Below are positions 1,897 through 63,672 of a stretch of 64,000 bases of DNA, piece after piece. Position 1 is the first letter of the stretch. Each line of letters opens with the position of its first letter. The notes under the pieces were generated by a model that saw nothing but the letters and a program-made list of their open reading frames with translations, ran no database searches and had not been told where the DNA came from. Made by a program: the position numbers and the translations under genes. This DNA comes from an uncultured virus (IMG/VR IMGVR_UViG_3300042880_000230) (taxonomy: Duplodnaviria > Heunggongvirae > Uroviricota > Caudoviricetes), in the IMG/VR virus record IMGVR_UViG_3300042880_000230. One strand, 5' to 3'.

Positions 1897-2283
1897 TCAA
1901 TATGTGGAGGCGTCAGGAACTTCTAAAGGATAGAAAGAGCCTTCGATTCCACGGGCTAGCTCCTTCACCGCCTCTTCCGGCGTTGGGATATTTGCAAGGC
2001 TTGCACCTGCCCACTGTCTGCGAGCTAGCGCTAGCAGCACGGGGTACTGCTGCGCGGTTATGGAGTTAGGGAATGAGAGCGTGTCTAGCCAGTCCTGTTC
2101 TCCCCAGTTAATCTGCACCTCCTTGCGGATGTTCTGTAGGTCCAGCCTAAGGCTTCCGGTAGTGTACAGCACACACACGATGCCCGCATTCAGCCCGGAC
2201 CATTTCCCGTCTAGCTCCATGGTGCCTAGGTCTGTGCGAACGAGGAGGTTTCCGTAACTCGGCGAGGCGGCTAGGATTTTCAT
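1897..2283 (-). CDS. Hypothetical protein; candidate immunity partner of the MuF toxin
   Basis: 128 aa ORF overlapping the MuF fusion stop by 4 nt. Confidence 0.5.
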   Translation of the reverse strand: MKILAASPSYGNLLVRTDLGTMELDGKWSGLNAGIVCVLYTTGSLRLDLQNIRKEVQINWGEQDWLDTLSFPNSITAQQYPVLLALARRQWAGASLANIPTPEEAVKELARGIEGSFYPLEVPDASTY

Positions 2284-5207
2284 GGTCTGGACAGTTCGTA
2301 AAGCTCGTTAGCGTTCCTGACATCTACCTCTTCCGCCATCAGGTAATCGGTGGGCGCTTCCCATGCGTTAGCTTGGTCTGCCCGCCTGTGGATTAGCTGT
2401 AGCTGAGACGTGCTGAGGCGGTGTAGGTCTCCGTGGTACTTCGCCGGAAGGCCGCTCATGGCTGCGCTGACTTCGTTCTCGCTGTCGCCTGCAAACATGC
2501 CGCCTATGCTTTTACTCCACTCATTTGGACGCCCTAGCGCGTAGTGCATATTGATTCGGCAGTACGGCACAGCGCGTTCTGTTAGCTCACGGCCCTTAAC
2601 TCCGATAGCCCAGTTAGGCGAAGACGACTCGTTAGCCCCTAGCAGAGTGTCCTGATACACCCCTCCGGCTACCGGGGCAGGGTCTCTAAGGATCAAAGGC
2701 AGCACCGTCTTGTCTTCCGTTCGGAATAGCCGCAGGCATTTCCTAGTCCTGTCAGACCACTGCATGTCCACCCGCTCAAGGAACGCCTGATTCAGAGCCT
2801 GCTGCGACAGGAGAAGCATGTCAGTCTGATCTCTTGTTAGCGGCGAAATTGGCTGCTTGTCGTTAAGCATAGCCGCCTGCCCTACCCTTGTTATTTCCGT
2901 CCAGTCATTAGCAGCGACACGTCCGTTGTAGTCGAACATCTCTACCTCAGCGCCCACAAATTTCCGCTCCGTTAGCCAGCGCTTGAACATAGAAGCTCCT
3001 TTAGCCCACGACGATCCTGCCTGCTCTTGCGCCCAGCGTGTACTCCAATCCATGATTTCGATAATCTTGTCGTCCGATCCTAGCAGACGGCTCCCCATCT
3101 CCTTTGCCCATGCAGCGTATGCGCTAGTGCTAGGGTCGGAAGACCGCAGTTCATCCCAGTCCTTGCCGTTTTCGTCAGTCATCCGCACGACATTAGACGG
3201 CGAGTTAGGACGTAGCCTCGTAGGCAGTTTGTCTAGCACACCCTTCTCGTCAAGCACCGCAATCTCGTGGCTAACGTCGTCGTAGAAGGTTTCCCGTATC
3301 CCGTGGTACTCGTAGTGCATCCCTCGGTTAGCGAACCGCTTCATGTGCTGCGCACGCTTCCGCATCGTAGCCGCTAGGGTTCGATCAGGGATGAGGCGGG
3401 AGAGCGCGTGGAAGTCTGTGTCTTTAATAGCGCGGTGCATTCTGTACGCGCCTAGCCCGCCGAATACGCTATGCGCGTCCCTGTTTACTACTCCGGTAAG
3501 GGTTGGACGGTTCCGCATCGTCCACAATTCGCTAACGCTTTTATCGGATAGCACCTTCGCATCGCCTCGCGCACGCCAGCGCAAGGCACCTCCGTTATCG
3601 ACACGATAGGGAACGCCGCCTGCGACCAAGATGTTATCCGCTCCTGTGCCGATCACGTCCCAGTTAGCCATCCATGCGTCAACGTGGAAGCCTTTATGAA
3701 TCTCAGCGATCACAGCCTTGTACTCTGCGGAACTTTCGCCTAGCCGCTGCCGCATGCTTTGCAAAGTCTCCGCGCCGTCGATGAACTTGGATAGCTTAAC
3801 TGCCGCCCCGTCTGCGCGTGTGTACAGTTGGCTAGCAGGTACAGGCACAGATGCCGCCCGGTAAATCTTGTCGGCAGTCCCTTCGTCTGTTAGCTGCCCG
3901 ATACGTTCGGCAGTCGAAGCTCGCTTCATCACATAGCGTGTTCCTGTTGCCTTGTCCCTCACTAGCCGCGCCCCGGTTGTACCGCCAGCGCTGCCAAGGT
4001 CTTCAAACTCGTCCTCAATCGTAGAGCCTTCGACGTGGTATGGGAAGCCGTCTGCTTGGCGAGGGGTGTAGGTAGGCGCTGGAGGCGGCGGAGGAGGCGC
4101 TGGCGGGCGCACAGGCGCGGGAGGAGGCGCGGGCGGCGGTGTAGGCGCAGGCGGGGGCGTCCCGCCCTGAGGGCCAGACGGCGGGCGCTCGTTTACGACG
4201 GCAGGGACAGGCTTGCCGCGATCCTCCCACGTTCCGATCCCCTGCCCTTCCCGCAGAGGCAGGTCGGGCGTCTGCCCTAGCTGAGTCTTGAAGCCTGACG
4301 CAATAATCGCTCCCGTGTGGTTGATGTGGAAGCGCAGGCTGCTGGAGTATTCGATAGGGACGTTCTTAATGTTGCAGGTAGGTACGCCGCGAAAGGTTGG
4401 GCTGTTAGGTTCTACAGCTTCGCACCCCGTCACACTGATATGTGTTACGACACCGCTGTCTCGCATGGACCGGAGCGTGCCTGCGTCCGCCGCACGCCCT
4501 AACTCTGTGCGGACAATGGTCGGCACTCTGTTAGTGGCGATCTGCGGAATACGCTTGCGCACCTGCTCCATCACTTCATACGGCGACGACCCGTCTTCGA
4601 TCCCCTTAACGATAGTCTCTCGCAGACGCTGGCGGGTTGTGTCATTTATGTTAGTGACTAGCGAAGCCATCTCGTCGATGTCCGCTTGCAACACTCGGGC
4701 GCTTCCCGGACGCAGCCCAGCCCCTAGCACATCCCTGGTCTTCGACGCTACGGCATCCGCTACAGACTGCATGGGAGACCTAGCAGTTTGCTTGACTTCG
4801 ATGTCGGCGTCCTCGTTCTCCAGAACGTAAGCCAGCGCCTCCGCCCACAGAGCGCTGTGCTGGCCTGCCGGAATGTTTACGGCAGGAGCCTTTACACCGA
4901 ACACCCCTCCGTACCCTAGCGCACCGGGGTAGCTCCTCTGGACACGTTTTGCAAAGTCTGCAATAACGTCTTCGACCTGACGCTTCATCAGGGCTGTTAG
5001 CGATTTGCTGAATGTGCGAGAGGCTTTAAGGAAGGCCGAGTTGCGAATCTTGACCAAGTCAGCAGTCAGACGGCGGGCCGCTGTGCCTGTGAACGCCTCC
5101 ATTGTCCAGCCGCCTTCCGGCACTCTGCTAGCCTTGTACGCCGCAAAGAGCGCAGCCTGAGACGGGTAGCGCACCTTGGCTCCTGCTGTCTTGCGGATTG
5201 GGGGCAT
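2280..5207 (-). CDS. MuF-like minor head protein fused to a Pro-rich linker, a PI3/4-kinase/HipA-like domain and a putative ADP-ribosyltransferase domain
   Basis: Follows portal; INDTTRQRLR...IVRTE (MuF); GGTTGA..YVMK..E..NWD..DNI..VDNG (kinase fold); RLFRTE..ESSS..SENEV (R-S-E ART pattern). Confidence 0.8.
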   Translation of the reverse strand: MPPIRKTAGAKVRYPSQAALFAAYKASRVPEGGWTMEAFTGTAARRLTADLVKIRNSAFLKASRTFSKSLTALMKRQVEDVIADFAKRVQRSYPGALGYGGVFGVKAPAVNIPAGQHSALWAEALAYVLENEDADIEVKQTARSPMQSVADAVASKTRDVLGAGLRPGSARVLQADIDEMASLVTNINDTTRQRLRETIVKGIEDGSSPYEVMEQVRKRIPQIATNRVPTIVRTELGRAADAGTLRSMRDSGVVTHISVTGCEAVEPNSPTFRGVPTCNIKNVPIEYSSSLRFHINHTGAIIASGFKTQLGQTPDLPLREGQGIGTWEDRGKPVPAVVNERPPSGPQGGTPPPAPTPPPAPPPAPVRPPAPPPPPPAPTYTPRQADGFPYHVEGSTIEDEFEDLGSAGGTTGARLVRDKATGTRYVMKRASTAERIGQLTDEGTADKIYRAASVPVPASQLYTRADGAAVKLSKFIDGAETLQSMRQRLGESSAEYKAVIAEIHKGFHVDAWMANWDVIGTGADNILVAGGVPYRVDNGGALRWRARGDAKVLSDKSVSELWTMRNRPTLTGVVNRDAHSVFGGLGAYRMHRAIKDTDFHALSRLIPDRTLAATMRKRAQHMKRFANRGMHYEYHGIRETFYDDVSHEIAVLDEKGVLDKLPTRLRPNSPSNVVRMTDENGKDWDELRSSDPSTSAYAAWAKEMGSRLLGSDDKIIEIMDWSTRWAQEQAGSSWAKGASMFKRWLTERKFVGAEVEMFDYNGRVAANDWTEITRVGQAAMLNDKQPISPLTRDQTDMLLLSQQALNQAFLERVDMQWSDRTRKCLRLFRTEDKTVLPLILRDPAPVAGGVYQDTLLGANESSSPNWAIGVKGRELTERAVPYCRINMHYALGRPNEWSKSIGGMFAGDSENEVSAAMSGLPAKYHGDLHRLSTSQLQLIHRRADQANAWEAPTDYLMAEEVDVRNANELYELSRP

Positions 5208-6518: not shown

Positions 6519-7139
6519 TTAGGGAGATTTGAGCTTGGGTGCTTTTTCGCAGGCGATGCACCTGCCAGTCATGAGGTACACCTTGCCGTCTCCGCTAGGC
6601 CAGACGGCTAGTTTTGCAAGCCGTGCAACGTCCTCGGCATACATGTCGAGGATAGCCGCCCGCACTGTATCGGACAGGACCGGGGAGCGGTAGGCGTAGG
6701 GATTGCCGACAATGAACTTGCGCCCTGTGTCAGGCTCTGCGCCGACGAATGCCTGGAACGACGTTAGCGGAAGCACGACGTTGATCTTCGCCCCTAGCCA
6801 CCTTGCCTGCGGCCACAGGTCTCGCCTATCGTCCGGGAAGCCTGACGCTAGCACATCCAGGGTTTCGCGGGCCAGGCTGTCATCCGCAGGCATATCAGAC
6901 TCCGTCCCTCCGGCCTGCCGCCAGGCGTTTCGTATGGCAGACACGAAACGCTCCACAGGGTCTCGCACGGTCACTAGGGTTGTTCTGTTAGCCCACAATT
7001 CGGGGTGAGCCTTGCGGACTTCCTGCGGAGTAGCGTGGGCTGGCACGCCCGCAACGGCGCTAGCGCCTAGGTATCGACCGAGACAGCCGACACCCGTGCG
7101 CGGGTTAGCTAGCAGTGCGAAGCGATCCGAGACGAACAT
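6519..7139 (-). CDS. Sulfotransferase family 2-like protein
   Basis: NPRTG (5'-PSB-like), VRDPVERFVSA (3'-PB) and WPQ motifs. Confidence 0.65.
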   Translation of the reverse strand: MFVSDRFALLANPRTGVGCLGRYLGASAVAGVPAHATPQEVRKAHPELWANRTTLVTVRDPVERFVSAIRNAWRQAGGTESDMPADDSLARETLDVLASGFPDDRRDLWPQARWLGAKINVVLPLTSFQAFVGAEPDTGRKFIVGNPYAYRSPVLSDTVRAAILDMYAEDVARLAKLAVWPSGDGKVYLMTGRCIACEKAPKLKSP

Positions 7140-7170: not shown

Positions 7171-7452
7171 TCAAGGTTCCACAACCGCTAGCACCTCCTT
7201 CGCCTTCAGCACGACATACTGACGGCCTGCGGCATGGTACTCTGTGCCTTTATGCGCTGGCACGACGACAGCGACACCTAGGCGGATAGGTGCCGGAACG
7301 TCCGGCCCTACACCGCAGACCTCTCCGGTCACGGCTTCGTTAGCTTTCTGCGAGCGGCAGACCTCCGGCAGGACGATGCCGCTAGCAGTGCGCTCTTCTT
7401 TCCTGTCGAGGATGACGAGTACGTTAGTGAATGTGGGGTGGAGTTGTGCCAT
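7171..7452 (-). CDS. groES: Co-chaperonin GroES-like protein
   Basis: LHP..VLV, EERTASGIVLP, GEVCGVGP, EVLAVV; 93 aa. Confidence 0.9.
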   Translation of the reverse strand: MAQLHPTFTNVLVILDRKEERTASGIVLPEVCRSQKANEAVTGEVCGVGPDVPAPIRLGVAVVVPAHKGTEYHAAGRQYVVLKAKEVLAVVEP

Positions 7453-8101: not shown

Positions 8102-9268
8102 TTAGGCGGCGATCACTTCCGGCTTGAACGGGCGGGCCAGCACCGTCTGCTTGACGCCCCGGAACTCGCTGTGGTCCTTGACGGTCGCTTTGAATTTGAC
8201 GGTGTCGCCGATCTTTCCGGGAAGGTTGTTGGCGACTAGCGTATTTCCGTCGGCGGTCAGTAGGATGACCTTCTCGGTATAGCCGAACTGGGTGGAGTAT
8301 CCGAAACGGTTAGTCACCACCCCTTCAAACACCGCCCGCTCGCCGACGGTGCCGACGTAGTTGCTAGCCGCTGCCTGCTTCGCTTTCACCGCCTGACTCC
8401 GCGCCCGGTTGACGGCGGCGATGAGGGAGACGCCTACCCCGAAGGTCTTGCTAGTGACGTACCCTGACCGAACCACGGTGAGGAGGTTGTGGATGTACTC
8501 GCCCCCGTCGTCGGGGATTGCCAGGGCTTCGGCGATGAAGGCGTCGGCGGTCTCCTCCTCCTCTTCGGTGGGGTGGATGCCTGCGTGGAGAAGCTCCCAC
8601 GCCCCGTCCTTCGTGCTGCGAATGCCGCAATCTTCTGCGCGAGAGCGGGAAACGTACTGCCCGCCGTCCGCCTTAAGAGCTAGGGCGACCGCCTTCGTCA
8701 GGCTGTAGGCGTCGACCGCGCCGCCCTCATGCGTCCGCTCCTCGCGGTCCCCGTAGTCCCGCAGGAACTCGGAGAGGGTGGCGAAATGCTCGAACACCTT
8801 CGCCAGGTTCTCCGCCGTGTCGGCGGTGGTGAAGTGGCGGAGGCAGGACCGCCCGACCTGCTTCACCTGCCCCGCTTCGGAGCGGAGGAGGAAGGTGTCG
8901 GAGCGGCGGCGGTTCGTGGCGCAATGCTCGCACTCAATCGGAGCGGAGCGGAACCGGGCGGGCACCTCGCCCCCGGTTCCAAGAATGATGTTGCCGCCGT
9001 CGTGCGGGGTGAGGCGGGCGAGGAAGCTCCACCCCTTTACCATCACTTTCTCCTCCGCCCCCGTGATTTCCAGGTCGTGGACTTCGGCGGTAACGGTGCG
9101 GGAGGTGCTATGGTAGCCGTCCCCCGTGTAGGTGTGGACCTTCACCTGCTCCATGCGGGAGGCAGTGATGGTATAGGCGGGGATGGCGACCCCCAGCCGC
9201 TTCGCCTTCCGCTGGAGGGTAGCGAAGGCGGCGTCGAAGGCGGAAATGGAGCGGACGGTGATTTTCAT
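8102..9268 (-). CDS. Hypothetical early protein with Zn-ribbon and C-terminal OB-fold-like region
   Basis: CEHC..RRR..VGRSC; C-terminal KATVKDHSEFRGVKQT; directly behind a promoter cassette. Confidence 0.75.
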   Translation of the reverse strand: MKITVRSISAFDAAFATLQRKAKRLGVAIPAYTITASRMEQVKVHTYTGDGYHSTSRTVTAEVHDLEITGAEEKVMVKGWSFLARLTPHDGGNIILGTGGEVPARFRSAPIECEHCATNRRRSDTFLLRSEAGQVKQVGRSCLRHFTTADTAENLAKVFEHFATLSEFLRDYGDREERTHEGGAVDAYSLTKAVALALKADGGQYVSRSRAEDCGIRSTKDGAWELLHAGIHPTEEEEETADAFIAEALAIPDDGGEYIHNLLTVVRSGYVTSKTFGVGVSLIAAVNRARSQAVKAKQAAASNYVGTVGERAVFEGVVTNRFGYSTQFGYTEKVILLTADGNTLVANNLPGKIGDTVKFKATVKDHSEFRGVKQTVLARPFKPEVIAA

Positions 9269-9319: not shown

Positions 9320-9410
9320 TCCCTTTCAATACATCAGGCAAATAGATTTGCAAACGGTTTTTTGCACATTTTGCAAATTCTCTTTTTAGGTACGCATCCG
9401 CGTAGAATAT
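9320..9410 (-). promoter_or_regulatory. Repeated early-promoter cassette, copy 1
   Basis: Minus strand TTGCAA-N16-TATTGA; TGCA-N5-TGCA at 9363; TACGCATCCGCGTA at 9391. Confidence 0.75.
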
Positions 9411-9428
9411 GTTAGTGCTGCGGGCAGC

Positions 9429-10074: not shown

Positions 10075-10120
10075 GTGGTTTTTTCTGCGGTGGTTCGTTG
10101 TTGCGTCGTGCAACTGCTCC

Positions 10121-10200
10121 ACAAATACACCCGGCAAATAGATTTGCAAACGGTTTTTGCAAAATTGCAAATTCCCCTTCAGAATACGCGAATGCGTACC
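10121..10200 (-). promoter_or_regulatory. Repeated early-promoter cassette, copy 2
   Basis: CCCGGCAAATAGATTTGCAAACGGTTTTTGCAAAA and TACGCGAATGCGTA at 10185. Confidence 0.7.
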
Positions 10201-10392: not shown

Positions 10393-11849
10393 GCTAGTAG
10401 CAGGCGAGAGGCTTTCAGTTCTTCGTAGGCGATAGAGATTGCGTCCACCTGGTCATCGTGGTCGCCGTCAGGGAACTGCTCAAGCTCGCTGATAAAGTCC
10501 TTGTTCCACGGGCCGCGTACCATAACAAATTTGCCTGCCGCAATCTTTGCTAGCCAGGGACTCGCCCGCATCAGCTTGCTCTTGCTCTTCGGATTGCGGG
10601 CATGGACCGCTACCCTTCCGGCTAGCTTCTGCTGGAGTGTGGACATGCCTGACTGAAAGCCGCCGACCGCTTCCACACCGACCCGTGCGATGCCTCGGCT
10701 TTCCAAGTCCTCTAGCGAAGTGCGGACGATGGCGTTCTCTACCCTAGCCCACACCATGCGCTGGCGGAACATGTCTGTGAGATAGAGCGTATCGGTCTCC
10801 CGGTCGATTGCAAGCCTTGCACCTGAAGTATAGTCGCTGGTCTGCGTTTCGGTTAGTGCCAAGTCCCACCCACGGGTTTCTGCCAGACCCGCAGGAACCT
10901 GGCTAGCATCACAGCGGCGAAGCTGGTTGAGATCCACCTGGCCGGACGCCGAGGAGCGAGGTGTCTGCTGAAATAGAGAGTCCCACTCGTACCCTAGCAG
11001 AGATGCTCGCATACCTTGCAGGAACGACAGCGGCCTGATCTCAGGCGCTAGCGGCTCACCTTCGCTACGCCCTAGCGGGTCATCTGCCCTGCCTGACGCC
11101 ACTGCCTCGTAGACGATCCGGTCGAACACCTGATGCTCCTGACCTTCGTCGATTAGCTGCTGGCGGTACTCGTCACTTGTTAGGTGTCCGATAAGGTCAT
11201 GCGGGTGCCAGCGCGTCCCGATGAGCATGATCTTCGCGTCAGGAGAAAGCCGCGTCATGCAGTCGGCAAAGAACCACTGGATGACTTTGCGCCGCTGGAT
11301 AGCGGATTCGGCTTCTGCGCGTCCTGCGTGAGGGTCGTCAATAATCAGCCAGTCCGCCCGCCGCCCCGTGAGCTTAGAACCGGAAGACCTGACGACGACG
11401 GACGATCCGTTAGTGAAGACGCACATGTCAGCGCGGTCCATTCCTGCCCTAGGGCACACGCCGCGAAAGATTCTCTGGTAAGCCGCAAGCCGCGTGATGT
11501 CCTTTACCTCCGCAAGGAACTCGACTAGCAATGCGCGGCTGAATCCTGTTAGGGCTATGTGCGTCCCTGGGTAGGCTGCCAGAATCCAAGCCACCGCACG
11601 AACCGCCAGCATCCGGCTCTTGCCGTGCTGGGGAGGAGCAGACACAGCCACTCGCGGCTTGCGCACTCCGTCAGCTACCTGCTGCACGATGTCGGCTAGC
11701 TGAAGGTGGAACGGTGTTAGCTTGTACGCGCCGCCTGCGGTCTGAGGAAAGCATAAGGAGCAGAATACGGCTAGGCATGTTCTAGCCGCATGCTCCATCC
11801 TGCTTCGCGCTACAAGGAACGCGGCGTCGCTCATCATGGTCCGGCTCAT
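10389..11849 (-). CDS. terL: Terminase large subunit
   Basis: PPQHGKS Walker A, LIIDDP, GTRWHPHD, GWDLA, FPDGDHDDQVDA. Confidence 0.95.
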   Translation of the reverse strand: MSRTMMSDAAFLVARSRMEHAARTCLAVFCSLCFPQTAGGAYKLTPFHLQLADIVQQVADGVRKPRVAVSAPPQHGKSRMLAVRAVAWILAAYPGTHIALTGFSRALLVEFLAEVKDITRLAAYQRIFRGVCPRAGMDRADMCVFTNGSSVVVRSSGSKLTGRRADWLIIDDPHAGRAEAESAIQRRKVIQWFFADCMTRLSPDAKIMLIGTRWHPHDLIGHLTSDEYRQQLIDEGQEHQVFDRIVYEAVASGRADDPLGRSEGEPLAPEIRPLSFLQGMRASLLGYEWDSLFQQTPRSSASGQVDLNQLRRCDASQVPAGLAETRGWDLALTETQTSDYTSGARLAIDRETDTLYLTDMFRQRMVWARVENAIVRTSLEDLESRGIARVGVEAVGGFQSGMSTLQQKLAGRVAVHARNPKSKSKLMRASPWLAKIAAGKFVMVRGPWNKDFISELEQFPDGDHDDQVDAISIAYEELKASRLLLA

Positions 11850-12452: not shown

Positions 12453-13346
12453 TCAGCTAGTTTTTACACCCGCAAGCGACAAGAACTCGGCACGCGCCGC
12501 AGCCTCTTCAAAGATACCGTAGACAGACGAGGTCACCATGCGGCCATCTTTGCGTACACCGCGCAGGCATTGGCAGGTATGCTTGGCAGAGACCACTACC
12601 ATGATCCCGGCAGGGTCTAGCTTTCTGAGCGCGTCTGCGATTTGTTGCGTCAGGCGCTCCTGCACCTGCGGCCTGCGAGCATAGCCGTCTGCTAGCCTTG
12701 CGAGCTTGGATAGCCCTACCACGCGCTTTCGCGCTAGCGATGGAACATAGCCGATATGGCATTCCCCAGAGAACGGGAGTAGGTGATGCTCGCACAGAGA
12801 CACGAACGGTATTCCTGCTGAAATAATCATTCCACCATACTGAACTGGTGCGGTGTCGTCTAGGCTGAAATCCTTCTCCAGATGGATCGTCGGGTCTTCT
12901 TTAAGCCCCGATGTAAATTCTAGCATAGCCTTGATGAAGCGTGCGGGCGTCTCTAGCAAACCTTCTCGGTCAGGGTTTTCGCCTAGCCTTTGAAGCAGTC
13001 TACGAACTCCGTCCTCTGCTCCACTAGGTTCGCCAGCCTCCCATGGAAACTGAATCCACTCTGTTGGGCACTTGCGTTGAGATTTGTCTAGTAGGCAGAT
13101 GAACGGCTTGCCGGGATAGCGGCTCGCGTACTCACTCCGAGTCTTGCCAGAATCCACGAGGTCGTCCACTACAAAGTCAGCCTCTTCTGGAGAATCCGTT
13201 AGTGCTAGAGAGGGGTACTGCGCAGAGATAGCCTGCGCCGCGTGACACCCTCCTCTTGGAATACCGTAGAGCTTCGATTCGCGCGGGATCTCTTTACCTG
13301 CGACAGCGGCTAGTCGAGAAATGTCATTCCATGTTAGTATTTTCAT
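12453..13346 (-). CDS. folE: Purine phosphoribosyltransferase-like domain fused to GTP cyclohydrolase I
   Basis: N-term GIPRGG, VVDDLVDSGKT, WIQFPWE; C-term REGLLETPAR, SLCEHHLLPF, GLSKLAR, QVQERLT, HTC..RG. Confidence 0.92.
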   Translation of the reverse strand: MKILTWNDISRLAAVAGKEIPRESKLYGIPRGGCHAAQAISAQYPSLALTDSPEEADFVVDDLVDSGKTRSEYASRYPGKPFICLLDKSQRKCPTEWIQFPWEAGEPSGAEDGVRRLLQRLGENPDREGLLETPARFIKAMLEFTSGLKEDPTIHLEKDFSLDDTAPVQYGGMIISAGIPFVSLCEHHLLPFSGECHIGYVPSLARKRVVGLSKLARLADGYARRPQVQERLTQQIADALRKLDPAGIMVVVSAKHTCQCLRGVRKDGRMVTSSVYGIFEEAAARAEFLSLAGVKTS

Positions 13347-13355
13347 AGCGGATCG

Positions 13356-14075
13356 TTATGCGGGTTGAACTCCTCCAAGAGGTACGTTAGGCGCGGAGCG
13401 TGCGTCAAGGGCGTCCACTTTATAGAGCTTGTGAAGCTGCCAGCCTGCCCGGAAAAGACCTCCACGCGCTAGCACTTCTCGGCTGATTGCGTTAAGCACC
13501 TTCTCGTCCTCTCTGCGAGACCACTCAGGGTGAAGCCATATCGCCTGAAGGTTTGCAAGCCGTGCAATAGGCTTTCCTACAGTATCTTCAACCTGAGATA
13601 CCCAGTACCCTACAGACTGCTCGCTTTCAACAATGATCTTGATCTCGTTGGCGTAAGCTAGCATAGCGGCGGCTGGCGGTTCCGCTAGTTTCGGCGATAC
13701 CGTTATCCAGTCGAAGAGTTGGGAATTTCTAAGATACGCTCCGCAAGTCTCGACATGCAGCAGAATGCTTTCCTGACGCAGCCGCGAAGACAAGTAAGCT
13801 AGTGCGTTCTCTTTCTGTATCAAAGGCTCTCCTCCTGTTAGCACTACAAACTCAGAACGTGACTCGACTGCCTCTTTAACTAGCTGATCGACGGTAACTA
13901 GCAAAGACCGCTTCGGCGCAAACGCAGGATGCCATGTACCTGCGGAATCGCAGAAGGGGCACTTAACAGGACAGCCGTAAGTGCGAATGAAGAATGCGCG
14001 TCTCCCTATGTGGATACCCTCTCCTTGGAAGGCGTGGAAACGCTCATGGACAGGCAGGGTGATTTCAGCAGTCAT
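13356..14075 (-). CDS. queE: 7-carboxy-7-deazaguanine synthase (radical SAM)
   Basis: FQGEG, CPVKCPFCDS, TGGEP, TVSPK, QLHK. Confidence 0.93.
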   Translation of the reverse strand: MTAEITLPVHERFHAFQGEGIHIGRRAFFIRTYGCPVKCPFCDSAGTWHPAFAPKRSLLVTVDQLVKEAVESRSEFVVLTGGEPLIQKENALAYLSSRLRQESILLHVETCGAYLRNSQLFDWITVSPKLAEPPAAAMLAYANEIKIIVESEQSVGYWVSQVEDTVGKPIARLANLQAIWLHPEWSRREDEKVLNAISREVLARGGLFRAGWQLHKLYKVDALDARSAPNVPLGGVQPA

Positions 14076-14509
14076 GGTGTAGCGGTGGCGCTGTTTTTCG
14101 AGTCTTCCACTACCTCCACACGGGCCACGCTAACGCGCCCGCCTGTATGCGCTTGGATGACGGCGTTCACCTCCTGCAAGAGGAACGCCGCTAGCCCTTC
14201 ACTGGAGCAGTCGGGCACCTCAAAGATAGAGGCGATAAGGTCCGGCGATGTTAGCGTCTCTCGGAGAAGCGGTAGTTCCGGGTCGTCGTAGTTAAGGACT
14301 AGCGTATGATCGAACCGCTCCGCGATCCATGCTTTCAGAAACCCTAGCTTTCCGAAGTCGATAACAAAGCCGCAGGCGTCGAGAGTAGTTGCCGCGAAGG
14401 TAAACACGAAGCTCCAGTTGTGGCCGTGAATCCATGCGCAATGCCCGTCGTGGCTGGGCTGGCGGTGCGCAAAAGGTAGGTCGGTGTAGGCTTTGGTGCA
14501 GGTTATCAT
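14072..14509 (-). CDS. queD: 6-carboxytetrahydropterin synthase
   Basis: AHR..HDGHCAWIHGHNW, VIDFG, FDH, SSEGLA; start placed at the ATGA overlap. Confidence 0.92.
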   Translation of the reverse strand: MITCTKAYTDLPFAHRQPSHDGHCAWIHGHNWSFVFTFAATTLDACGFVIDFGKLGFLKAWIAERFDHTLVLNYDDPELPLLRETLTSPDLIASIFEVPDCSSEGLAAFLLQEVNAVIQAHTGGRVSVARVEVVEDSKNSATATP

Positions 14510-15765: not shown

Positions 15766-15770
15766 GTGAG

Positions 15771-17822: not shown

Positions 17823-17909
17823 GATGTAGAGTGTTAGGGTGGAAGGCGGTCTGCGCTGCATTCTTATCCACCGCAAGAAAGCACCTGACCAGACCGCCTA
17901 GCTCCGCGT

Positions 17910-48617: not shown

Positions 48618-48647
48618 AATTTGCAAGGTTTGCAGTTGTTGCTAGGG

Positions 48648-51817: not shown

Positions 51818-52252
51818 CTAGCGCCTCCACCTCCTAGCCAGTGCGTCTACGAGCCGCCGGATCGGGCTAGGCTTAGGGCACTCAATCCACCGCTCGCCTC
51901 GCGCTGCTGCGGCGTTTACTACGTCTACCTCGTCCGCTACCGCCTCCTGATATTCCCGGTAGTATGCCACAGGCGACGAGTCCTGCTCGGCCCTGGCAGA
52001 CACTACGCCGTAGGCTTTAAGGTGCGCCTTGCGGAGCTTGCGGCGAGCTAGCGGCCCACGCCGGAACTGGATGAACCACCGCTGCTCCCGGTAGTCCCAT
52101 TTGATTTCGCTAACACGATCAGTCTGCGTATCGCCTAGCTGCTTGAAGTCGATACCGCCGGAGATTTGCAAGCCGTGCAATCCACCATCTGGAGATATGC
52201 GAAGGACTTGCAGCCTGTTAGGCGTCTGAGTTGGGAGGGTAGGAGAGTTCAT
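51818..52252 (-). CDS. Hypothetical protein of the AAA+/DUF1257/DUF2997 module
   Basis: I.PDG..L...ID...LG.....R.S.I.W; TAAC-ATG coupled to the DUF2997 gene. Confidence 0.6.
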   Translation of the reverse strand: MNSPTLPTQTPNRLQVLRISPDGGLHGLQISGGIDFKQLGDTQTDRVSEIKWDYREQRWFIQFRRGPLARRKLRKAHLKAYGVVSARAEQDSSPVAYYREYQEAVADEVDVVNAAAARGERWIECPKPSPIRRLVDALARRWRR

Positions 52253-53734: not shown

Positions 53735-55399
53735 TTAGTTCATATTTCGGCGGCGGGCTGGGCCGGAGGCGTCGGCTTGCGTAGCGGCTGGCGCTTTGCG
53801 AGCAGGCTTGGACGGGTCGGGAGAAGAGGCGGGCACCGCGTTCTTGCTAGCCCACGCTTCCATCGCAGCGAAGTCTTCCGCGAAGGACTGGGAGAGCGGT
53901 TTGATAGTTTGCAATTCTTGCAAAATTGTCGCTCCGCTCACAGGTGCCCCTTTACGGAAGGCGGCGCTGACCGCACGTTGAACCGCGCTCTCAAGCTCCG
54001 CGCCGACGTAGCCAGAAGACTCTGCTGCTGCGGCTTGCAGGTCTTTGATCTTGCTAGGATCTTGCTTGGCTTTTCGCAGGTGGATGCGGAGGATTTCCAG
54101 ACGCTCGACTGTGTTAGGCGGGTTGACCCCGAAGACTTCGTCGATCCGGCCTTTGCGGACGAGAGCAGAGTCGATGCCCTCGGCGCGGTTAGCAGCGAAG
54201 CAGAAGAACGCGCCAGTTTCGTTAGTCTGCATGAAGTCCAGCAGCGTTCCGATCATGCGCCGAGTAATGCCGCCGTCGCCGCCGACCGTGTTCATGCCCA
54301 TGGTCCGGTCGATCTCGTCGGCAAACACAACGCACTCACCTAGCGCTTCGATGTCCTTGCACAGACGGCGGACGTTAGCCTCGGTCTGCCCTACGATACC
54401 GCCGAAGAGAGCGCCGATGTGGATTTTGATAGCAGGGATGCGGAAGATTGCGCCGAAGGTAGACGCTGTCAGGCTTTTACCTGTACCAGGAGGGCCGATA
54501 AGGGTGACGCCTCGCGGACGCTTTACCCCGAACGCTAGCGCTTCCGGCGTGCGGTCAACCGCCCGCGCCTGCGCCCACTCCTTTAGCAGGTCCAGCCCGC
54601 CGACGTTCTCCAGAGCCACTTCTGGCATAATCTCCAGCAGGCCAGACGCCTTGATCGTGTCCGCCTTCGCCGCCATCACCCGGCGGTTGAAGGATGTAAA
54701 TGGTATGTTAGGGATCTGGTCGCGGAAGTCGATCAAGGTAGCACATACCGCCGTCTCTGCTTCCAGGCAGGTCAGCCCTCCCGCCGACACCGCCAGCTGG
54801 CGCATCTCGTCCGCAGGGTAGGTCTGGGGCGTTCCGCGCCGCTGCTCTGCGTCGTCTGCGAATACCTTAGCGATAAGGGTCTCAAGCTCTGCTGTGTCAG
54901 GGAGTGCCATGTCGATGACTGGAATGTCGTGGGACAGTTCCTCGGGCACGTTAAAGGTTTCGGGGACCGAGAGTATGATGCGCTGGCCGGACCTAGCAGG
55001 AAGCTCCCACGCATAGTACCGCAGCAGGCTAACAATTTCCGGGTTGGGCTGCGCTCCGAGAAAAGCGTGCAGGTCCGAGAACATGCACACCGTGCGAGGG
55101 TCCATAGGTGCTGGGGACGTAACCGCGCTAACGTCTAGCACTGCTTTCAGCGCCTTGACTACGCCCGCCTCCTCCCGCTTGAAACTGCCCGTGGCGTGGT
55201 CTGCGATGCGCCAGTTCCTAGCCAAGTCCCAGCACCGGAAAGGGCGGGCACCTTGCGGGGAGCGAGCGCAGTATTCGTGCAGAGCCTGCTCGACTCTGTT
55301 AGGCTCGCGAGACCGGATCACCATAACGCCTACGGCGGAGGAGTCGTAGCGTGTAAAGGCGGCGAGGAAGTCGGAAATGGATTTGTGTTCGTCTTGCAT
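53735..55399 (-). CDS. Ycf46-like AAA+ ATPase
   Basis: Degenerate N-terminal AAA domain; VGGLDLLKEW, GPPGTGKS, DEID, AN, RKGRIDE, P..ER.EIL.IHL, GAELE. Confidence 0.88.
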   Translation of the reverse strand: MQDEHKSISDFLAAFTRYDSSAVGVMVIRSREPNRVEQALHEYCARSPQGARPFRCWDLARNWRIADHATGSFKREEAGVVKALKAVLDVSAVTSPAPMDPRTVCMFSDLHAFLGAQPNPEIVSLLRYYAWELPARSGQRIILSVPETFNVPEELSHDIPVIDMALPDTAELETLIAKVFADDAEQRRGTPQTYPADEMRQLAVSAGGLTCLEAETAVCATLIDFRDQIPNIPFTSFNRRVMAAKADTIKASGLLEIMPEVALENVGGLDLLKEWAQARAVDRTPEALAFGVKRPRGVTLIGPPGTGKSLTASTFGAIFRIPAIKIHIGALFGGIVGQTEANVRRLCKDIEALGECVVFADEIDRTMGMNTVGGDGGITRRMIGTLLDFMQTNETGAFFCFAANRAEGIDSALVRKGRIDEVFGVNPPNTVERLEILRIHLRKAKQDPSKIKDLQAAAAESSGYVGAELESAVQRAVSAAFRKGAPVSGATILQELQTIKPLSQSFAEDFAAMEAWASKNAVPASSPDPSKPARKAPAATQADASGPARRRNMN

Positions 55400-55427
55400 G
55401 TGTTAGTATGGTTGGGGTGTGGGTCTA

Positions 55428-55535
55428 CTTTACACCCGGCAAAAGATTTGCAAGCAGAGACTCAAAGAATTTTCAGAGATTGCAATTTGCAAAGATTTGC
55501 AAAGTTACGGCCTGGAAATTTGCAAGCCGTGCATT
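55428..55535 (-). promoter_or_regulatory. TTGCAA promoter variant with clustered TGCA boxes
   Basis: CCCGGCAAAAGATTTGCAAG plus five further TGCA including the exact 13-mer at 55521. Confidence 0.65.
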
Positions 55536-57634: not shown

Positions 57635-57822
57635 GGGTCTACTGCTTCGCCACCGCCTTCTTCGCCACCGCCTTCTTCGCCACCGCCGCCTGAACCGCTA
57701 GGCAGGGGTGCAGAGCTTGATCCGCCAGAAGAGTAGACGGAACTGCTAGACTCCGACACCGAGGTGCTAGTCTTTGCAGACCCGCTGGAAGACGAGGGGG
57801 AGGATGAGGAGGATGATGTCAT
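57631..57822 (-). CDS. Small Ser/Gly-rich peptide
   Basis: ATGA overlaps at both ends; includes a 15-bp repeat x3 at about 57645-57688. Confidence 0.5.
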   Translation of the reverse strand: MTSSSSSSPSSSSGSAKTSTSVSESSSSVYSSGGSSSAPLPSGSGGGGEEGGGEEGGGEAVDP

Positions 57823-59297
57823 TCGCGTGGGTAGGCAGAGTTGATAAATGCTTCGTTAGCTTCAAACTGTTGGGCAGAGCGCGACGGGAATCGCATCCCG
57901 ACAAATCCTTTCCGAATAGCCGTCAGTCGCACGCACACCTTTGCAGGTCTCCTGCCGAATCGGTAGCACTCGACAATCAGTTCGCCGCGAACCACCCTAG
58001 CGCATCGCACTGGACCAGTATCTCCTGACGCACTACACACTTCGACAGTATCGTACTCGCAGACTGCCATGAAGCGAGGATCGACAGGCACCCGCGAAAT
58101 CCGACCCTTGATCTTTAGCGTCATCACGTCATCGAACCTAACATCAGGCATCTCATGCGCGAAGAGGGCAGCGTAGCCTGACGCGAGCCACGGTGCAGGC
58201 ACGATAGCAGTGGACTTGTCAGAGCCGAGCGATGCAGAGCTAGTGCTGGAGCCGGACGAAGAAGAGCTAGAGCCCGGGTCTATCTTGATCCCTGTTAGTG
58301 CAGGTGCAGCAATGACCCCTGTATGCCGCTGCTGTAGCCACAGAACGTCAGCGCCTGCCTCGTCTTTGACCGTGATGAACTCCGCTAGTAAAACGTGTCC
58401 GGTAGTTTCGGTGTTCACTGGAGCGGACGTAGTCGATATGATAGAGCCGCCCGTTGGTGTGTAGTAGTTGACCGTGATGCCGTTGATAGTCCTGCTAGCT
58501 TTAGAGAAATTGATCTGTGCGTAGACGCTGTGGCTAGCGGATACTGTAACGGATGCCCCGCCGATACCTACTTCCCGCAGCGAAGCAAACGGGATGCCTG
58601 TGACGGTAGCGCTAGCCCAGTCAGCGTAGGACACCCTGCCCGCAGAGAAATAGGCAGTGGTTGCGCCTGTCATCGCACCCGCAAACCCTAGCTTCCAGTC
58701 TAGCGTAGCCGCCTGCGGGCTATCTTCGTACACTTCCACGCTAACAATCTTCACGGCTGCGCCCGACGCTACAAGCTCAAACTTGTTGAGCGCCACTAGC
58801 ATCTCGCCGTCCTGTGCGGTTGGCGCTGTACCGTTTGCAAGGAATGCAACTTCAGCCCGCAGGGCCGACACACGAAGCCAGGAAATGTAAGTACCCGGCG
58901 CTAGCACTTTGTAGGGCGCGGGCGTAGCACTCAGCTTCGTATAGGTAGTAGACGGGTCGCCCTCATGCACCATAACGACAGAGCGCTCTATGCTGTGCGA
59001 TCTCTGGCTAGTCGCGCCTACCGGGCGCTGCCGCAGCCATTGCGATTGACCGTCCGTTAGGCTGACGCCGAACACGCCGCCTCGGTCTACGACGTAAGGG
59101 AAGAGGGAGCGGCGGGCATCAAGCGCCTCCTGCGCTAGCTCAATCACTACCATACTGCCTTCACGGCGAAGGCGAATGCCCGGTCCTTCCGAGACGCCTA
59201 GGCTGTTAGCGCCGACCTTGTTTACCTCCGCCGCAATCCGATTGAGCGCCGCAGCCAGTTCCGGCTGACCTGTGATTTTGAAGGTTCCTAGTGCCAT
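57819..59297 (-). CDS. Putative distal tail protein with poly-Ser tract
   Basis: Second gene after the tape measure; beta-rich; PGSSSSSSGSSTSSAS. Confidence 0.6.
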   Translation of the reverse strand: MALGTFKITGQPELAAALNRIAAEVNKVGANSLGVSEGPGIRLRREGSMVVIELAQEALDARRSLFPYVVDRGGVFGVSLTDGQSQWLRQRPVGATSQRSHSIERSVVMVHEGDPSTTYTKLSATPAPYKVLAPGTYISWLRVSALRAEVAFLANGTAPTAQDGEMLVALNKFELVASGAAVKIVSVEVYEDSPQAATLDWKLGFAGAMTGATTAYFSAGRVSYADWASATVTGIPFASLREVGIGGASVTVSASHSVYAQINFSKASRTINGITVNYYTPTGGSIISTTSAPVNTETTGHVLLAEFITVKDEAGADVLWLQQRHTGVIAAPALTGIKIDPGSSSSSSGSSTSSASLGSDKSTAIVPAPWLASGYAALFAHEMPDVRFDDVMTLKIKGRISRVPVDPRFMAVCEYDTVEVCSASGDTGPVRCARVVRGELIVECYRFGRRPAKVCVRLTAIRKGFVGMRFPSRSAQQFEANEAFINSAYPRE

Positions 59298-59301
59298 GGC
59301 G

Positions 59302-60075
59302 TTAGTAAATGTCGGCGTCCCATCCAGCCCTACCTGACAGCTTCCAGCTTTCATGCAAGCGAAGACCGTTGCCGACGGTCTCCATCCGAGCAGTAGACTT
59401 GAGCCATGTGCGCGTGCCTACGTTAGGGAGGAGGTACGAAGCTGGCGGTGTGTCGATCTTGCCTAGAGATGCTAGGTTGATGCCTTGCGTTATCTTCGTG
59501 CGGTCAGGGATGGTGCGAACGCGGGTGTAGACTAGCCCTGGGCTATAGTAGGACTTGATTCCGGCCTTGGGGTTAGGCGCTCCAGAGATGAGCGGTCGGA
59601 AGCCTAGGAACTCTCCTGTCTTTTTGTCGAACTCGGCACCATTCTTCCACGTTGCAGGATCGGCAGGCTTGCCAGCAAACTCCGGGAAGTCAGGGTGCGT
59701 CTCAATAGGCTCGCTGTCTGTGGCTCCTTCCAGCGTGTACGTTACAAGCTCACCGTCCTCGCCTGTAGCCTGCTCCGGCATACCCGGCCCATTGCTGCCG
59801 GGAGAAGGCTCTGGATCGACTCCTTCAAAATTCACGCTAACAGTCGCCAGGTAGCCTTCGATCCTCCTGATGGTAGCCTTCTTCCGCATAAGCCAGGAAA
59901 ATTCTGGATGCACTTTGAGCGCCCTGACTAGCCTAATGGCATCGTCGTACTTGCAGGTGTACTCAAGCACGGCGCTGCCTACTCCGCTGTCGTCGATCTC
60001 TATGCTATGGTCAACGCCTTCGACTAGCGTTGCCAGGGAGCTACCAATGTAGAGGATTCTGCTAGTGTCTGCCAT
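59302..60075 (-). CDS. Putative tail protein
   Basis: Directly after the tape measure; EPIETHP.F motif. Confidence 0.6.
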   Translation of the reverse strand: MADTSRILYIGSSLATLVEGVDHSIEIDDSGVGSAVLEYTCKYDDAIRLVRALKVHPEFSWLMRKKATIRRIEGYLATVSVNFEGVDPEPSPGSNGPGMPEQATGEDGELVTYTLEGATDSEPIETHPDFPEFAGKPADPATWKNGAEFDKKTGEFLGFRPLISGAPNPKAGIKSYYSPGLVYTRVRTIPDRTKITQGINLASLGKIDTPPASYLLPNVGTRTWLKSTARMETVGNGLRLHESWKLSGRAGWDADIY

Positions 60076-62633: not shown

Positions 62634-63142
62634 TCCGTGCGGGGTAGGCCCGGAGTAGCGGGAGCGCTAGCTAGAACGCGAGTGCGCCCGCCGTCCTGAA
62701 GGTACTGCGTCACTTCTGACACTAGCTCAAACACCGCAGGGCCGTAAGGGATGGACGCGGAGAACTCCTCGACCTGCTGCCTGTAGTCGGGCGCTTTCGA
62801 GACGGCTAGCGCTTCTCGGCTAGTAGGCAGGCTGCCGATAAATACGACCTCGCACGCAGCCAGCACGGTGTCTGCCACGTTATCGGCTTTCGCTGTGACT
62901 AGCGCATTGTTGCTGCGCATGAAGATCATCAGGTCGGACAGGGTCAGGCACCGGAGATTAAAGCCTGCGACAACCCATCCGCTTCCATCCAGACCCGCCG
63001 CCTCACCCTCACCGATAACCAGTTTCGCAGCCTCCTCATCCGGCAGCGCGGGAGACGCGCCGCCGCCTAGCACTGCGTCCAGTTGCTTGTCTTCTTCGCT
63101 GTACGCTGCGGCAGGCTGTGCTGTTGCTCTCTTAGGTCTCAT
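62597..63142 (-). CDS. Tail assembly chaperone
   Basis: Upstream of the tape measure with a slippery site near its end. Confidence 0.75.
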   Translation of the reverse strand: MRPKRATAQPAAAYSEEDKQLDAVLGGGASPALPDEEAAKLVIGEGEAAGLDGSGWVVAGFNLRCLTLSDLMIFMRSNNALVTAKADNVADTVLAACEVVFIGSLPTSREALAVSKAPDYRQQVEEFSASIPYGPAVFELVSEVTQYLQDGGRTRVLASAPATPGLPRTEGNDCTPPGQSD

Positions 63143-63672
63143 TCTTGTGGGGTGGTGGTGGGTAATTGTGTTTCCGGCGTATGCACTAGCCGTTCAAGTG
63201 CGGAGGGTACAGGCTCGGCAGTCGCAGGCTTCATCCCTCGGCGCAAAGCCGCGATGTGCTTGCGAGATCCTTCTGTTAGCCAGAGGTGCGTCTTGACTCC
63301 CTGCTGGTCGTGTACCGCCATAGGCACCACAGCCCGTTCTGACAGGTGCTTGCGTTCGATGTCTGCGAAGTTGATAATAGCGGCTAGCGCAAATGAGAGC
63401 GGGCAGACAGGGTTTTCCGCGACATAACGGAATGGGTCGCTAGACGCTACTAGCGCTTTCGATACGTCCACGATTCTCTCAGGATCGTGCGACTGGAAAA
63501 TGAAGATCGCCTGCCTGTGTCCGCTAGCGTACTGGACAAGTTTTGCAGGTCTTGCAAGTGGCACCCCCACAGAGAGGAGTGCGGCGGCTAGCACCCGGTC
63601 TTTGACCACATAGGTGTTGCGGTTCTGTAGGTCCACGCCTTTGGCGCGAATAGCGTTAGTGTCTCTGGCCAT
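63139..63672 (-). CDS. Hypothetical protein in the tail operon
   Basis: ORF from MARDT with 4-nt overlap. Confidence 0.6.
   Translation of the reverse strand: MARDTNAIRAKGVDLQNRNTYVVKDRVLAAALLSVGVPLARPAKLVQYASGHRQAIFIFQSHDPERIVDVSKALVASSDPFRYVAENPVCPLSFALAAIINFADIERKHLSERAVVPMAVHDQQGVKTHLWLTEGSRKHIAALRRGMKPATAEPVPSALERLVHTPETQLPTTTPQE

Follow-up and report, generated by a model that had tools for sequence, protein, structure and literature searches.

A genome-wide array of symmetric TGCA-N5-TGCA dyads in an uncultured siphophage, and its counterparts in seven other phages

What purpose might be served by a short inverted repeat that recurs every couple of kilobases through a phage genome, mostly inside genes? 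The question is raised by a stretch of 64,000 nucleotides from an uncultured member of the Caudoviricetes (IMG/VR record IMGVR_UViG_3300042880_000230; the whole stretch is hereafter called the window), in which an original prediction, made from the letters of the DNA, had seen a dispersed TGCA-N5-TGCA motif and proposed that it serves as the binding site of one protein linking promoter control to genome-wide silencing, organisation or packaging. The window makes up 64 kb of the ~75.9-kb genome of a virulent-looking siphophage, and the nearest record (G001) represents the same phage at 99.995% identity and adds 11.9 kb beyond the window.

All eight exact copies that had been claimed for the 13-mer TGCAAGCCGTGCA are present, seven on the plus strand (6615, 13554, 33120, 37555, 45800, 52167 and 55521) and one on the minus strand (38492), against 0.00 expected, as not one of 100 dinucleotide shuffles contained any match. 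Because all genes of the window, and all open reading frames (ORFs) of any length, are carried by the minus strand, the sense-strand form of this 13-mer is TGCACGGCTTGCA. The looser pattern TGCA-N5-TGCA occurs 29 times, compared to 1.26 expected (standard deviation 0.99, largest value 4), and among these sites are all 26 coordinates named in the original prediction, which had overlooked the copies at 4950, 40330 and 58836. Codon-preserving shuffles, which had been named there as a control, did not reproduce the enrichment: in 1000 synonymous-codon shuffles of 86 ORFs, which keep every protein and the codon usage of each gene, the intragenic count averaged 3.73 (standard deviation 1.35, maximum 9) and never reached the observed 22, a number that probably counts the site at 37555 twice, as it lies in two overlapping ORFs. 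In the same shuffles the exact 13-mer had a mean of 0.11 and a maximum of 2, against seven observed. When the ORFs were tiled over the window, 21 of the 29 sites fell within them and eight were intergenic, in line with the claim that the copies lie mostly inside genes, and in the whole 75.9-kb genome 24 of 34 sites are intragenic. Five nucleotides is the sole enriched spacing, with 34 sites genome-wide compared to zero to four at each other spacing from N0 to N12. Restriction-modification, or avoidance of TGCA, was considered as an origin of the pattern and rejected, as the tetramer is neither avoided nor enriched (247 in total, 232 expected).

In the aligned sites, only positions -4 to +15 carry information, and they do so symmetrically, reading A/T, T, TGCA, five bases under loose constraint, TGCA, A, A/T. 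The functional unit is the dyad (A/T)T-TGCA-N5-TGCA-A(A/T) and not the exact 13-mer; its common form on the sense strand is TTGCACGGCTTGCAAA, several copies make up a perfect 13-bp palindrome, TGCAAG-S-CTTGCA, and the two TGCA arms stand one helical turn apart. Sites are found in codon phases 0, 1 and 2, which places the signal at the level of the DNA, as opposed to an encoded peptide. Nine of the sites could be followed in two relatives from metagenomes (L141 and L142), whose nucleotide identity to the replication block is 71-73%, and at seven of the nine both TGCA arms are retained at the corresponding position. Across all nine sites, identity was 92% in the eight arm columns, 56% in the five centre columns and 70% in 60 flanking columns, and by our own arithmetic the chance of such arm conservation is ~1e-7, all of which indicates purifying selection on the two TGCA arms only. 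As the arm columns are conserved and the centre is not, the unit is two arms at a fixed spacing. Sites that are lost are replaced within ~1 kb, as seen at 52167 and 58836 in the comparison with L141, and at the terminase site at 10809 in the comparison with three further relatives (L018-L020).

No close relative of the window phage was present in the phage collection that we searched. Distant relatives were found through PolA, and these share only the replication/recombination block, with HJ05 and RcDurkin also sharing part of the tape measure protein. Seven other phages each carry a dyad of their own in 16-40 copies. These are Aeromonas phage HJ05 (16 copies of TTGCAACYGGTTGCAA, with the pattern TTGCAAC[CT]GGTTGCAA), Rhodobacter phage RcDurkin (TGCAATCGATTGCA; 31 TGCA-N6-TGCA sites and 40 of the core), Pseudomonas phage SM1 (30 copies of TGCAARCGCTTGCA, or TGCAA[AG]CGCTTGCA), the IMG/VR genome G003 (30 copies of TGCAACWGTTGCA, or TGCAAC[AT]GTTGCA, with 36 N5 sites), the IMG/VR genome G004 (19 copies of TTGACCGTCGGTCAA, with changed arms), Agrobacterium phage JP1 (35 TGCA-N6-TGCA sites, mostly TTGCAAACGTTTGCAA), which was picked after the pattern was known, as a test of prediction, and mycobacteriophage Corndog, whose published 17-bp dyad TGTTCGGNNNCCGAACA we could confirm in 34 copies. 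When all 5-mer inverted repeats were counted blindly, the dispersed array ranked first in all eight genomes, and the next unrelated dyad reached four to nine copies. Further fragments bear N5 or N6 versions of the dyad. A comparison of SM1 with PaMx31 (99% identical) had no power, with two differences in 420 site bases against 4.2 expected, and a scan of viral contigs for the exact 15-mer was uninformative, as its at least 104 single, unrelated matches are at the level of chance. Our literature search did not find the motif strings in a phage context, nor a paper on repeats in Samunavirus and HJ05, and the words "motif" and "palindrom" are absent from the main text of the RcF cluster paper that describes RcDurkin.

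Two of these genomes deserve a separate comment. In G004 (L154-L158), which is complete at 88 kb, the TGCA arms have given way to TTGACC/GGTCAA with the hexamer-N3-hexamer layout kept, a natural switch in specificity that could help to identify the binder. In G005 and a related contig (L135, L136), TGCACG-C-CGTGCA (13 bp) and TGCACG-NN-CGTGCA (14 bp) occur in the same genome, which suggests that the binder can accommodate a difference of one base in the distance between half-sites.

The arrangement of the dyads along the DNA is also far from random. Gaps between the 34 sites of the window phage range from 937 to 4708 bp, or about one site per 2.2 kb, with a coefficient of variation (CV) of 0.41 compared to 0.96 for random placement, and none of 20,000 random sets was as even. 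The same was true of G003 for its 30 TGCAACnGTTGCA copies (CV 0.38, 0 of 20,000 as even; CV 0.51 for all 36 sites), and even spacing was found as well in SM1 (30 sites, CV 0.55, P = 1e-4), JP1 (35 sites, CV 0.60, P = 8e-4), G004 (19 sites, CV 0.46, P = 4.5e-4) and, when the 10-mer core was used, RcDurkin (40 sites, CV 0.65, P 0.003). Under a single definition of the site, five of the eight genomes thus have ruler-like spacing, and RcDurkin joins them with its 10-mer core. The intergenic share of the sites is ~29% in each of four genomes, against 6-9% expected, and such an excess is what would be expected if a site were needed at intervals and placed outside genes when possible.

Taken together, the symmetry of the site, its arms one helical turn apart, the selection on the arms only, the turnover of sites at a kept density, their even spacing and the lack of promoter elements discussed below argue for a protein-bound array with an effect along the DNA. 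We consider it somewhat better than even, with a probability of about 0.55, that the array represents genome-wide binding sites for one phage-encoded dimeric DNA-binding protein, and that it serves DNA organisation or replication and not promoter control. A dimer would bind the dyad with the major grooves of both TGCA arms facing one side of the helix, and sites would be kept at intervals of ~2.2 kb, in intergenic DNA where possible and inside genes otherwise. Because coverage is maintained, and not exact position, the bound protein, or a factor loaded by it, would most likely act along the DNA over one or two kilobases; its role could be to organise or compact replicating phage DNA, or to load replication or recombination factors. 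Of the original proposal, the idea of binding sites for one protein gains from the dyad symmetry, the arm-only selection and the lineage-specific versions, while promoter control would be left with a side role at most.

Five to eight dyads lie in conserved intergenic cassettes made of a hairpin, AAAGAAAGTT, the dyad and TTGCAAATC..TTTGCCGGGT, and TTGCAAATC has 17 copies on the sense strand and none on the other. Eight cassette copies end in TTGCAAATCnnTTTGCCGGGTnTATT, and five of the eight are preceded by the hairpin CTACGCGGATGCGTA. These cassettes resemble promoters to the eye and are probably early ones, but a scan with the sigma-70 consensus, whose promoters have -35 and -10 hexamers 16-18 bp apart, does not call them: it found two promoter-like sites, compared to 4.5 expected, none of which at a cassette. 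No -10 hexamer was found at a fixed distance from the dyad in the window phage or in five relatives, and in these six genomes TAnnnT was present at no more than two to four of 18-36 sites at any offset. The promoter cassettes of the original prediction are real as conserved intergenic units with dyad copies in them, but no fixed -10 goes with the dyad. Two promoter types were considered for the dyad and set aside, namely a MerR-family operator, with the dyad in a 19-bp promoter spacer, as no -10 follows the dyad, and a sigma-54 promoter, as the spacing is by inspection two bases short of TGGCAC-N5-TTGC. The missing -10 lowers the case for a classical MerR activator, not for binding by a MerR-like domain. 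It is improbable that the array mainly serves to switch individual promoters; the same protein probably does modulate expression at the cassettes and upstream of a gene for an AAA ATPase, to which we return below.

It could also be argued that the sites are stoperators or operators, with a repressor that binds early promoters and dispersed sites and so blocks transcription through the genome, the analogy with mycobacteriophage L5 that had been drawn originally. The copies in the cassettes, a dyad of SM1 that lies just downstream of a TATAAT box ahead of the AAA ATPase gene, and a modest bias in orientation (15:4) would suit such a function. Stoperators, however, are described as asymmetric and oriented (PMC4351075), and the site studied here is symmetric; ~70% of its copies are intragenic, no promoter element stands at a fixed offset, and a search of the 97 ORFs with PHROGs models found no integrase, repressor, excisionase or RNA polymerase family. 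With no lysogeny family detected by these models, the phage is not obviously temperate. The L5 analogy is not supported, and we consider a stoperator function improbable.

If a phage protein binds the dyads, which one could it be? Three of the proteins put forward originally, an XRE protein (26476), an HNH-like protein (17910) and the protein at 29521, are poor candidates, as none has a homologue in two or more of five related complete array genomes. The MerR-like protein, also named there, fared better and is among our two best candidates; the lambda-O-like protein and the AAA ATPase had not been listed. The structural model of the MerR-like protein (predicted local distance difference test score 80) matches MerR-family DNA-binding domains over residues 95-180 (Z 5.0-6.5), and eight of its top 10 structural matches are such domains, including that of RacA (Z 5.2, root mean square deviation 2.8, 67 aligned residues), which reportedly acts as a symmetric dimer that recognises inverted repeats of 14 bp and compacts DNA (PMC12266134). 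Homologues are encoded by HJ05, SM1, RcDurkin, JP1, G003 and G004, or six of the seven other phages. We tentatively place this protein first, at odds that stay clearly below even.

The lambda-O-like (hereafter O-like) protein is a possible binder as well, with a somewhat smaller chance. Its N-terminal domain is predicted to be a winged helix (Z up to 9.9, for a generic fold) with matches that include the N-terminal domains of DnaD and DnaB(Bs), its neighbours in a protein language-model space are Phage_rep_O clusters (0.95), and the protein is found in the window phage, HJ05, SM1, RcDurkin, JP1, G003 and G004. Should it be the binder, the dyads might be distributed initiator sites: the O-like protein would bind each of them and, with the products of the genes immediately downstream, the 183-aa ORF and the DnaB-like helicase, load or reload the replicative helicase, so that origins or restart points would recur about every 2 kb through the genome, in place of a single cluster of iterons. 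The gene order O-like, ~185-aa ORF, DnaB in the window phage, HJ05, RcDurkin and SM1 speaks for this possibility, as do the Phage_rep_O-like signals and winged-helix matches, the half-site cluster upstream of the AAA ATPase gene, and the even spacing, which is on the scale of Okazaki fragments and would fit a role in replication. On the other hand, the Phage_rep_O (PF04492) matches, seen in 12 of 16 O-like homologues, are all below the curated cut-off (best E 0.0022), and the dyads are single and dispersed (minimum gap 937 bp), compared to the tight iteron clusters of lambda. One dyad does lie inside the O-like gene in all four genomes checked (window phage, HJ05, RcDurkin and SM1), but at this density chance alone would put a dyad into a 1.3-kb gene about half the time; moreover, Corndog has the array and no O-like protein. 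On balance we hold distributed initiation to be unlikely.

A third candidate is a ParB_N-like protein, which we think has a small chance of being the binder, with some other protein taking the remaining odds. It matches phrog_620 (E 3.9e-21) and our own ParB_N profile (E 4.6e-5), and no Pfam family at 0.01. ParB_N-like proteins are encoded in all eight array-bearing genomes, with weak scores only in the window phage and in G003, whose protein was missed by Pfam and by the ParB-like query from the window and was matched by our own profile. The dyads would then form an array of the parS or KorB type, at which the protein loads on palindromes and then spreads or slides, silencing or organising the DNA. 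A dyad of 13-16 bp is a palindrome like parS and the KorB operators, and spacing that provides coverage would suit a factor that spreads. But the window protein is seen only by PHROGs and our own profile and not by Pfam, the PHROGs scan of the 97 ORFs found no ParA, and ParB_N domains are common in phages. Another role is suggested by the second ParB_N protein of HJ05, with its weak match to a methyltransferase domain, and by gp51 of SM1, which is annotated as ParB_N_like_MT. The Corndog authors, moreover, considered the ParB-like protein of that phage unlikely to act in genome stability (PMC4351075). We find this explanation improbable. Nothing useful came from searching the PDB by sequence, whether with the three candidates or with an O-like profile.

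Several observations weigh against a phage-encoded dimer bound at every dyad. Spacing is not significantly even in HJ05 (18 sites, CV 0.77, P 0.20), in Corndog (34 sites, CV 1.03, P 0.73), or in RcDurkin when TGCA-N6-TGCA sites are used (31 sites, CV 0.79, P 0.13). The asymmetric variants of the dyad show a 15:4 bias in orientation in the window phage (two-sided binomial ~0.02) and an 11:1 bias in HJ05, when a purely symmetric site in double-stranded DNA predicts none; in SM1 there is no bias (11:10), and in RcDurkin it is undefined. As for the proteins, the candidate binders have structural matches with middling Z scores only, and a Foldseek search of the PDB with the MerR-like model gave no match at E <= 0.001. 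Corndog, with its array and its AAA ATPase, has no detectable homologue of either the O-like or the MerR-like protein. The putative recognition helices of these two proteins are highly variable among lineages that share TGCA arms, do not obviously track the changed dyad of G004, and showed no clear pattern of covariation with the version of the dyad. Finally, conserved arms around a free centre would fit a hairpin too.

Hairpins in single-stranded DNA or messenger RNA, acting in lagging-strand priming or assembly, or as signals for RNA processing or stability, would in fact account for the conserved arms and free loop, for the bias in orientation, and for the change of both arms together in G004 with complementarity kept, and since the genes are all on one strand every site is transcribed. 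A stem of only 4-6 bp argues against them, as does the fact that the arms stay TGCA in most lineages with no compensatory drift. In relatives, centres of 1-2 nucleotides (TGCAAC-W-GTTGCA, TGCAAT-CG-ATTGCA) would make a loop impossible or very tight unless the arm partly opens, and Rfam found only a tRNA at gathering score in the 64-kb window. Hairpins seem to us quite improbable as the basis of the array. Least probable of all, and very much so, are sites for a phage endonuclease or nickase, whether localised nicks of the T5 or tf type or an interrupted-palindrome enzyme. In favour are the spread of the sites regardless of gene borders, the form GCA-N5-TGC, which is that of an interrupted-palindrome restriction site, and a gene complement that includes a ligase, an HNH protein and two resolvases. 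But the HNH protein is not common to the relatives, and symmetric sites would give double-strand cuts.

The protein that, with the O-like protein, best tracks the array is a Cdc48/p97-like AAA ATPase. Its AAA domain has clear matches (best E 7e-58, with p97 entries at ~1e-55), its first 245 residues gave no match, and it is encoded by all eight array-bearing genomes. Of 50,697 phage records, no more than 53 contain a full-length homologue; they comprise the proteobacterial relatives, one Streptococcus satellite (Javan368) and 34 Cluster O mycobacteriophage records, and the Rhizobium L338C group is also among the 53. Gp96 of Corndog is a full-length homologue (28% identity, 95% cover, E 1e-43), and in a phmmer search the ATPase was the only window protein with a homologue in Corndog (E 2.5e-49). 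A dyad lies 39-134 bp upstream of the start codon of this gene in six of the eight genomes, and the Corndog repeat lies 48 bp upstream; such placement has P = 5e-7 if sites were placed uniformly and 1.5e-3 when intergenic enrichment is allowed for. The cluster at this place in the window could possibly be a control region or an origin. In most relatives, the ATPase is followed by a conserved 153-aa protein and then by a DUF2997 protein. It is conceivable, if unlikely in our judgment, that array, dimeric binder and ATPase are parts of one unrecognised phage "chromatin" system, where the binder, seated at sites ~2 kb apart, would coat the replicating phage DNA or partition it and the unfoldase would strip or remodel the coated DNA at the switch to packaging. 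Such a system would be common to siphophages of Alpha- and Gammaproteobacteria and to Cluster O mycobacteriophages, with DNA specificities swapped, and if true would explain the decade-old Corndog repeats.

As for the genome in which the array resides, PHROGs and Pfam identified structural genes (terminase, portal, head protease and tape measure protein), a replication/recombination block (the AAA ATPase, DnaB-like helicase, PolA, DnaG-like primase, superfamily 2 (SF2) helicase, RecA/UvsX-like protein, two resolvases and a Cas4-like exonuclease), an ATP-dependent ligase and RNase H. A gene for a GroES-like co-chaperonin lies among the head genes (7171-7452; phrog_3188, E 1e-10), and a tRNA-Leu with anticodon TAG (23935-24019, ARAGORN and Rfam) is on the plus strand, opposite every protein gene. 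Positions 12453-16604 hold a complete cluster for 7-deazaguanine DNA modification, with FolE, QueE, QueD, a glutamine amidotransferase-QueC fusion (Gat-QueC) and a DpdA-like transglycosylase, which the ParB_N-like gene adjoins; L018-L020 (72% nucleotide identity) are without the entire cluster, and their alignment skips from 16872 to 12406 of the window. The string CACTAACA, with 23 copies on the sense strand and two on the other, provides a conserved stop-start or translation-initiation context of the TAA-C-ATG type ahead of many genes (for example in the 9268, 21207 and 22811 regions), and ACTAACATGA has seven copies. Window DNA was found in 12 public runs, as assembled contigs from lake, freshwater or riverine metagenomes, with no RNA run among those listed, and contigs from four runs are near-identical to it, with three substitutions. 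Contigs of all four runs break at 45934-45969, in the 3' part of the PolA gene, with the same foreign sequence on both sides, which points to a variant that has either an insertion or another segment there; in HJ05, the PolA region is annotated as two coding sequences ~700 bp apart.

Table. Positions in the window of the dyads, the intergenic cassettes and the genes discussed in the text; for exact 13-mers the strand is that carrying TGCACGGCTTGCA.
Feature	Positions	Strand	Description or context
Dyad TGCAAGGCTTGCA, perfect 13-bp palindrome	1993-2005		inside ORF 1897-2283
Dyad, sense TGCAGACTTTGCA	4950-4962		inside ORF 2280-5207
Dyad, exact 13-mer (sense TGCACGGCTTGCA)	6615-6627	-	inside ORF 6519-7139
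Dyad	9363-9375		intergenic cassette upstream of ORF 8102-9268
Dyad, perfect palindrome	10809-10821		inside terminase large subunit gene; absent at homologous place in L018-L020
Dyad, exact 13-mer	13554-13566	-	inside QueE-like gene
Dyad	17484-17496		inside ORF 17313-17876
Dyad, perfect palindrome	19670-19682		inside ORF 19457-19705
Dyad	21530-21542	-	intergenic cassette (hairpin, AAAGAAAGTT, dyad, TTGCAAATC..TTTGCC)
Dyad	22905-22917	-	cassette of same type as at 21530
Dyad	25686-25698		inside ORF 24668-26374
Dyad	28384-28396	-	intergenic, 21 nt ahead of ORF start 28363
Dyad	29438-29450	-	inside ORF 29000-29569
Dyad	31263-31275	-	intergenic cassette
Dyad, exact 13-mer	33120-33132	-	inside ORF 32556-33164
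Dyad	34387-34399	-	intergenic cassette
Dyad, exact 13-mer	37555-37567	-	junction of exonuclease and RuvC-like genes
Dyad, exact 13-mer, opposite orientation	38492-38504	+	7 nt before resolvase gene end
Dyad	40330-40342	-	inside RecA/UvsX-like gene
Dyad	41947-41959		inside SF2 helicase gene; identical at homologous place in L142
Dyad	44132-44144		intergenic; both TGCA arms kept in L142
Dyad, exact 13-mer	45800-45812	-	intergenic after PolA; in L142 arms kept, centre differs
Dyad	48622-48634		4 nt before PolA ATG; arms kept in L141 and L142
Dyad	51139-51151		middle of lambda-O-like gene; arms kept in L141 and L142
Dyad, exact 13-mer	52167-52179	-	inside ORF 51818-52252; decayed in L141
Dyad	53910-53922		inside AAA ATPase gene; arms kept in L141
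Cluster of ~80 bp	55453-55533	-	upstream of AAA ATPase gene; exact 13-mer (55521-55533) and four further TTGCAA boxes
Dyad	58836-58848		inside ORF 57819-59354; lost in L141
Dyad	63544-63556		inside ORF 63139-63696
Cassette copies	9353-9420, 10100-10175, 21480-21560, 22850-22935, 31210-31290, 34340-34420, 36840-36900, 55400-55460		
Candidate binder 1	40997-41539	-	180-aa MerR-like winged helix-turn-helix protein, between SF2 helicase and RecA-like genes
Candidate binder 2	50469-51734	-	421-aa lambda-O-like winged-helix protein, followed by 183-aa ORF (49895-50446) and DnaB-like helicase (48648-50030)
Candidate binder 3	16601-17278	-	ParB_N-like protein adjoining DpdA
Cdc48/p97-like AAA ATPase	53735-55399	-	single AAA domain and 245-aa N-terminal part

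Our results show that dispersed dyad arrays are not an oddity of mycobacteriophages, as they are present in phages of Pseudomonas, Aeromonas, Rhodobacter and Agrobacterium and of uncultured hosts in freshwater, with the AAA ATPase as the common denominator of array phages. What the array does could be tested in the culturable phages SM1, JP1, RcDurkin, HJ05 and Corndog, and the candidates are down to three or four proteins. Should the array serve to organise or replicate phage DNA, it would represent a new layer of phage genome architecture, and one of importance for the recoding and engineering of these phages, as synonymous changes could destroy sites.

Among known systems, the initiator O of phage lambda binds dyad-symmetric repeats, four iterons in a tight cluster. 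The window phage resembles it in having a putative initiator with a winged-helix N-terminal domain, a dyad inside the gene for that protein and a helicase gene after it, and differs in that lambda has one tight cluster and the window phage 34 single sites genome-wide. The KorB operators of plasmid RK2 are 13-bp palindromes with a central G/C, of which about a dozen are found on a 60-kb replicon, both close to promoters and distant from them, and are bound by a protein of the ParB family. Palindromes of the 13-bp class dispersed over a replicon are shared with the KorB and ParB-parS systems, whereas the window phage, a virulent-looking one, has a ParB_N-like match only and no ParA among the 97 ORFs searched, and its sites are denser and evenly spaced. 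In Bacillus subtilis, there are about 25 ram sites, bound by the sporulation protein RacA. RacA, like candidate binder 1 by its model, has a MerR-like winged helix-turn-helix domain; its targets are 14-bp inverted repeats scattered along a region of the chromosome, and it compacts DNA (PMC12266134). Relatives of the window phage use 14-bp TGCA-N6-TGCA dyads; RacA, however, is a cellular protein and not one of a phage. With the stoperators of L5 and Cluster A, the array shares tens of 13-bp sites through a phage genome and one (here putative) binding protein, but stoperators are asymmetric, oriented with transcription and found in temperate phages with a repressor, as far as the account in the Cluster O paper goes (PMC4351075).

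The closest parallel is provided by the Cluster O mycobacteriophages themselves, whose 17-bp dyad, present more than 30 times, has been on record since 2015 with no function assigned, and for which the authors predicted binding by a dimer in a process distinct from the initiation of transcription (PMC4351075). From the description in that paper, the two arrays have in common more than 30 copies in an apparently non-temperate siphophage of ~70 kb, invariant inverted arms with a variable centre, and many intragenic copies, with most copies not at promoters (PMC4351075). Corndog differs in the sequence and arm length of its dyad (7+3+7), in the crowding of its sites towards one genome end (the CV of 1.03 given above), and in its proteins, where the AAA ATPase is the sole homologue of a window protein by phmmer, with ParB_N domains present in both groups. 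As a kind of element, dispersed dyad arrays in a non-temperate phage are already known, and what our analysis adds to it is a proteobacterial family of such arrays, their ruler-like spacing, the selection specific to the arms and the shared AAA ATPase.

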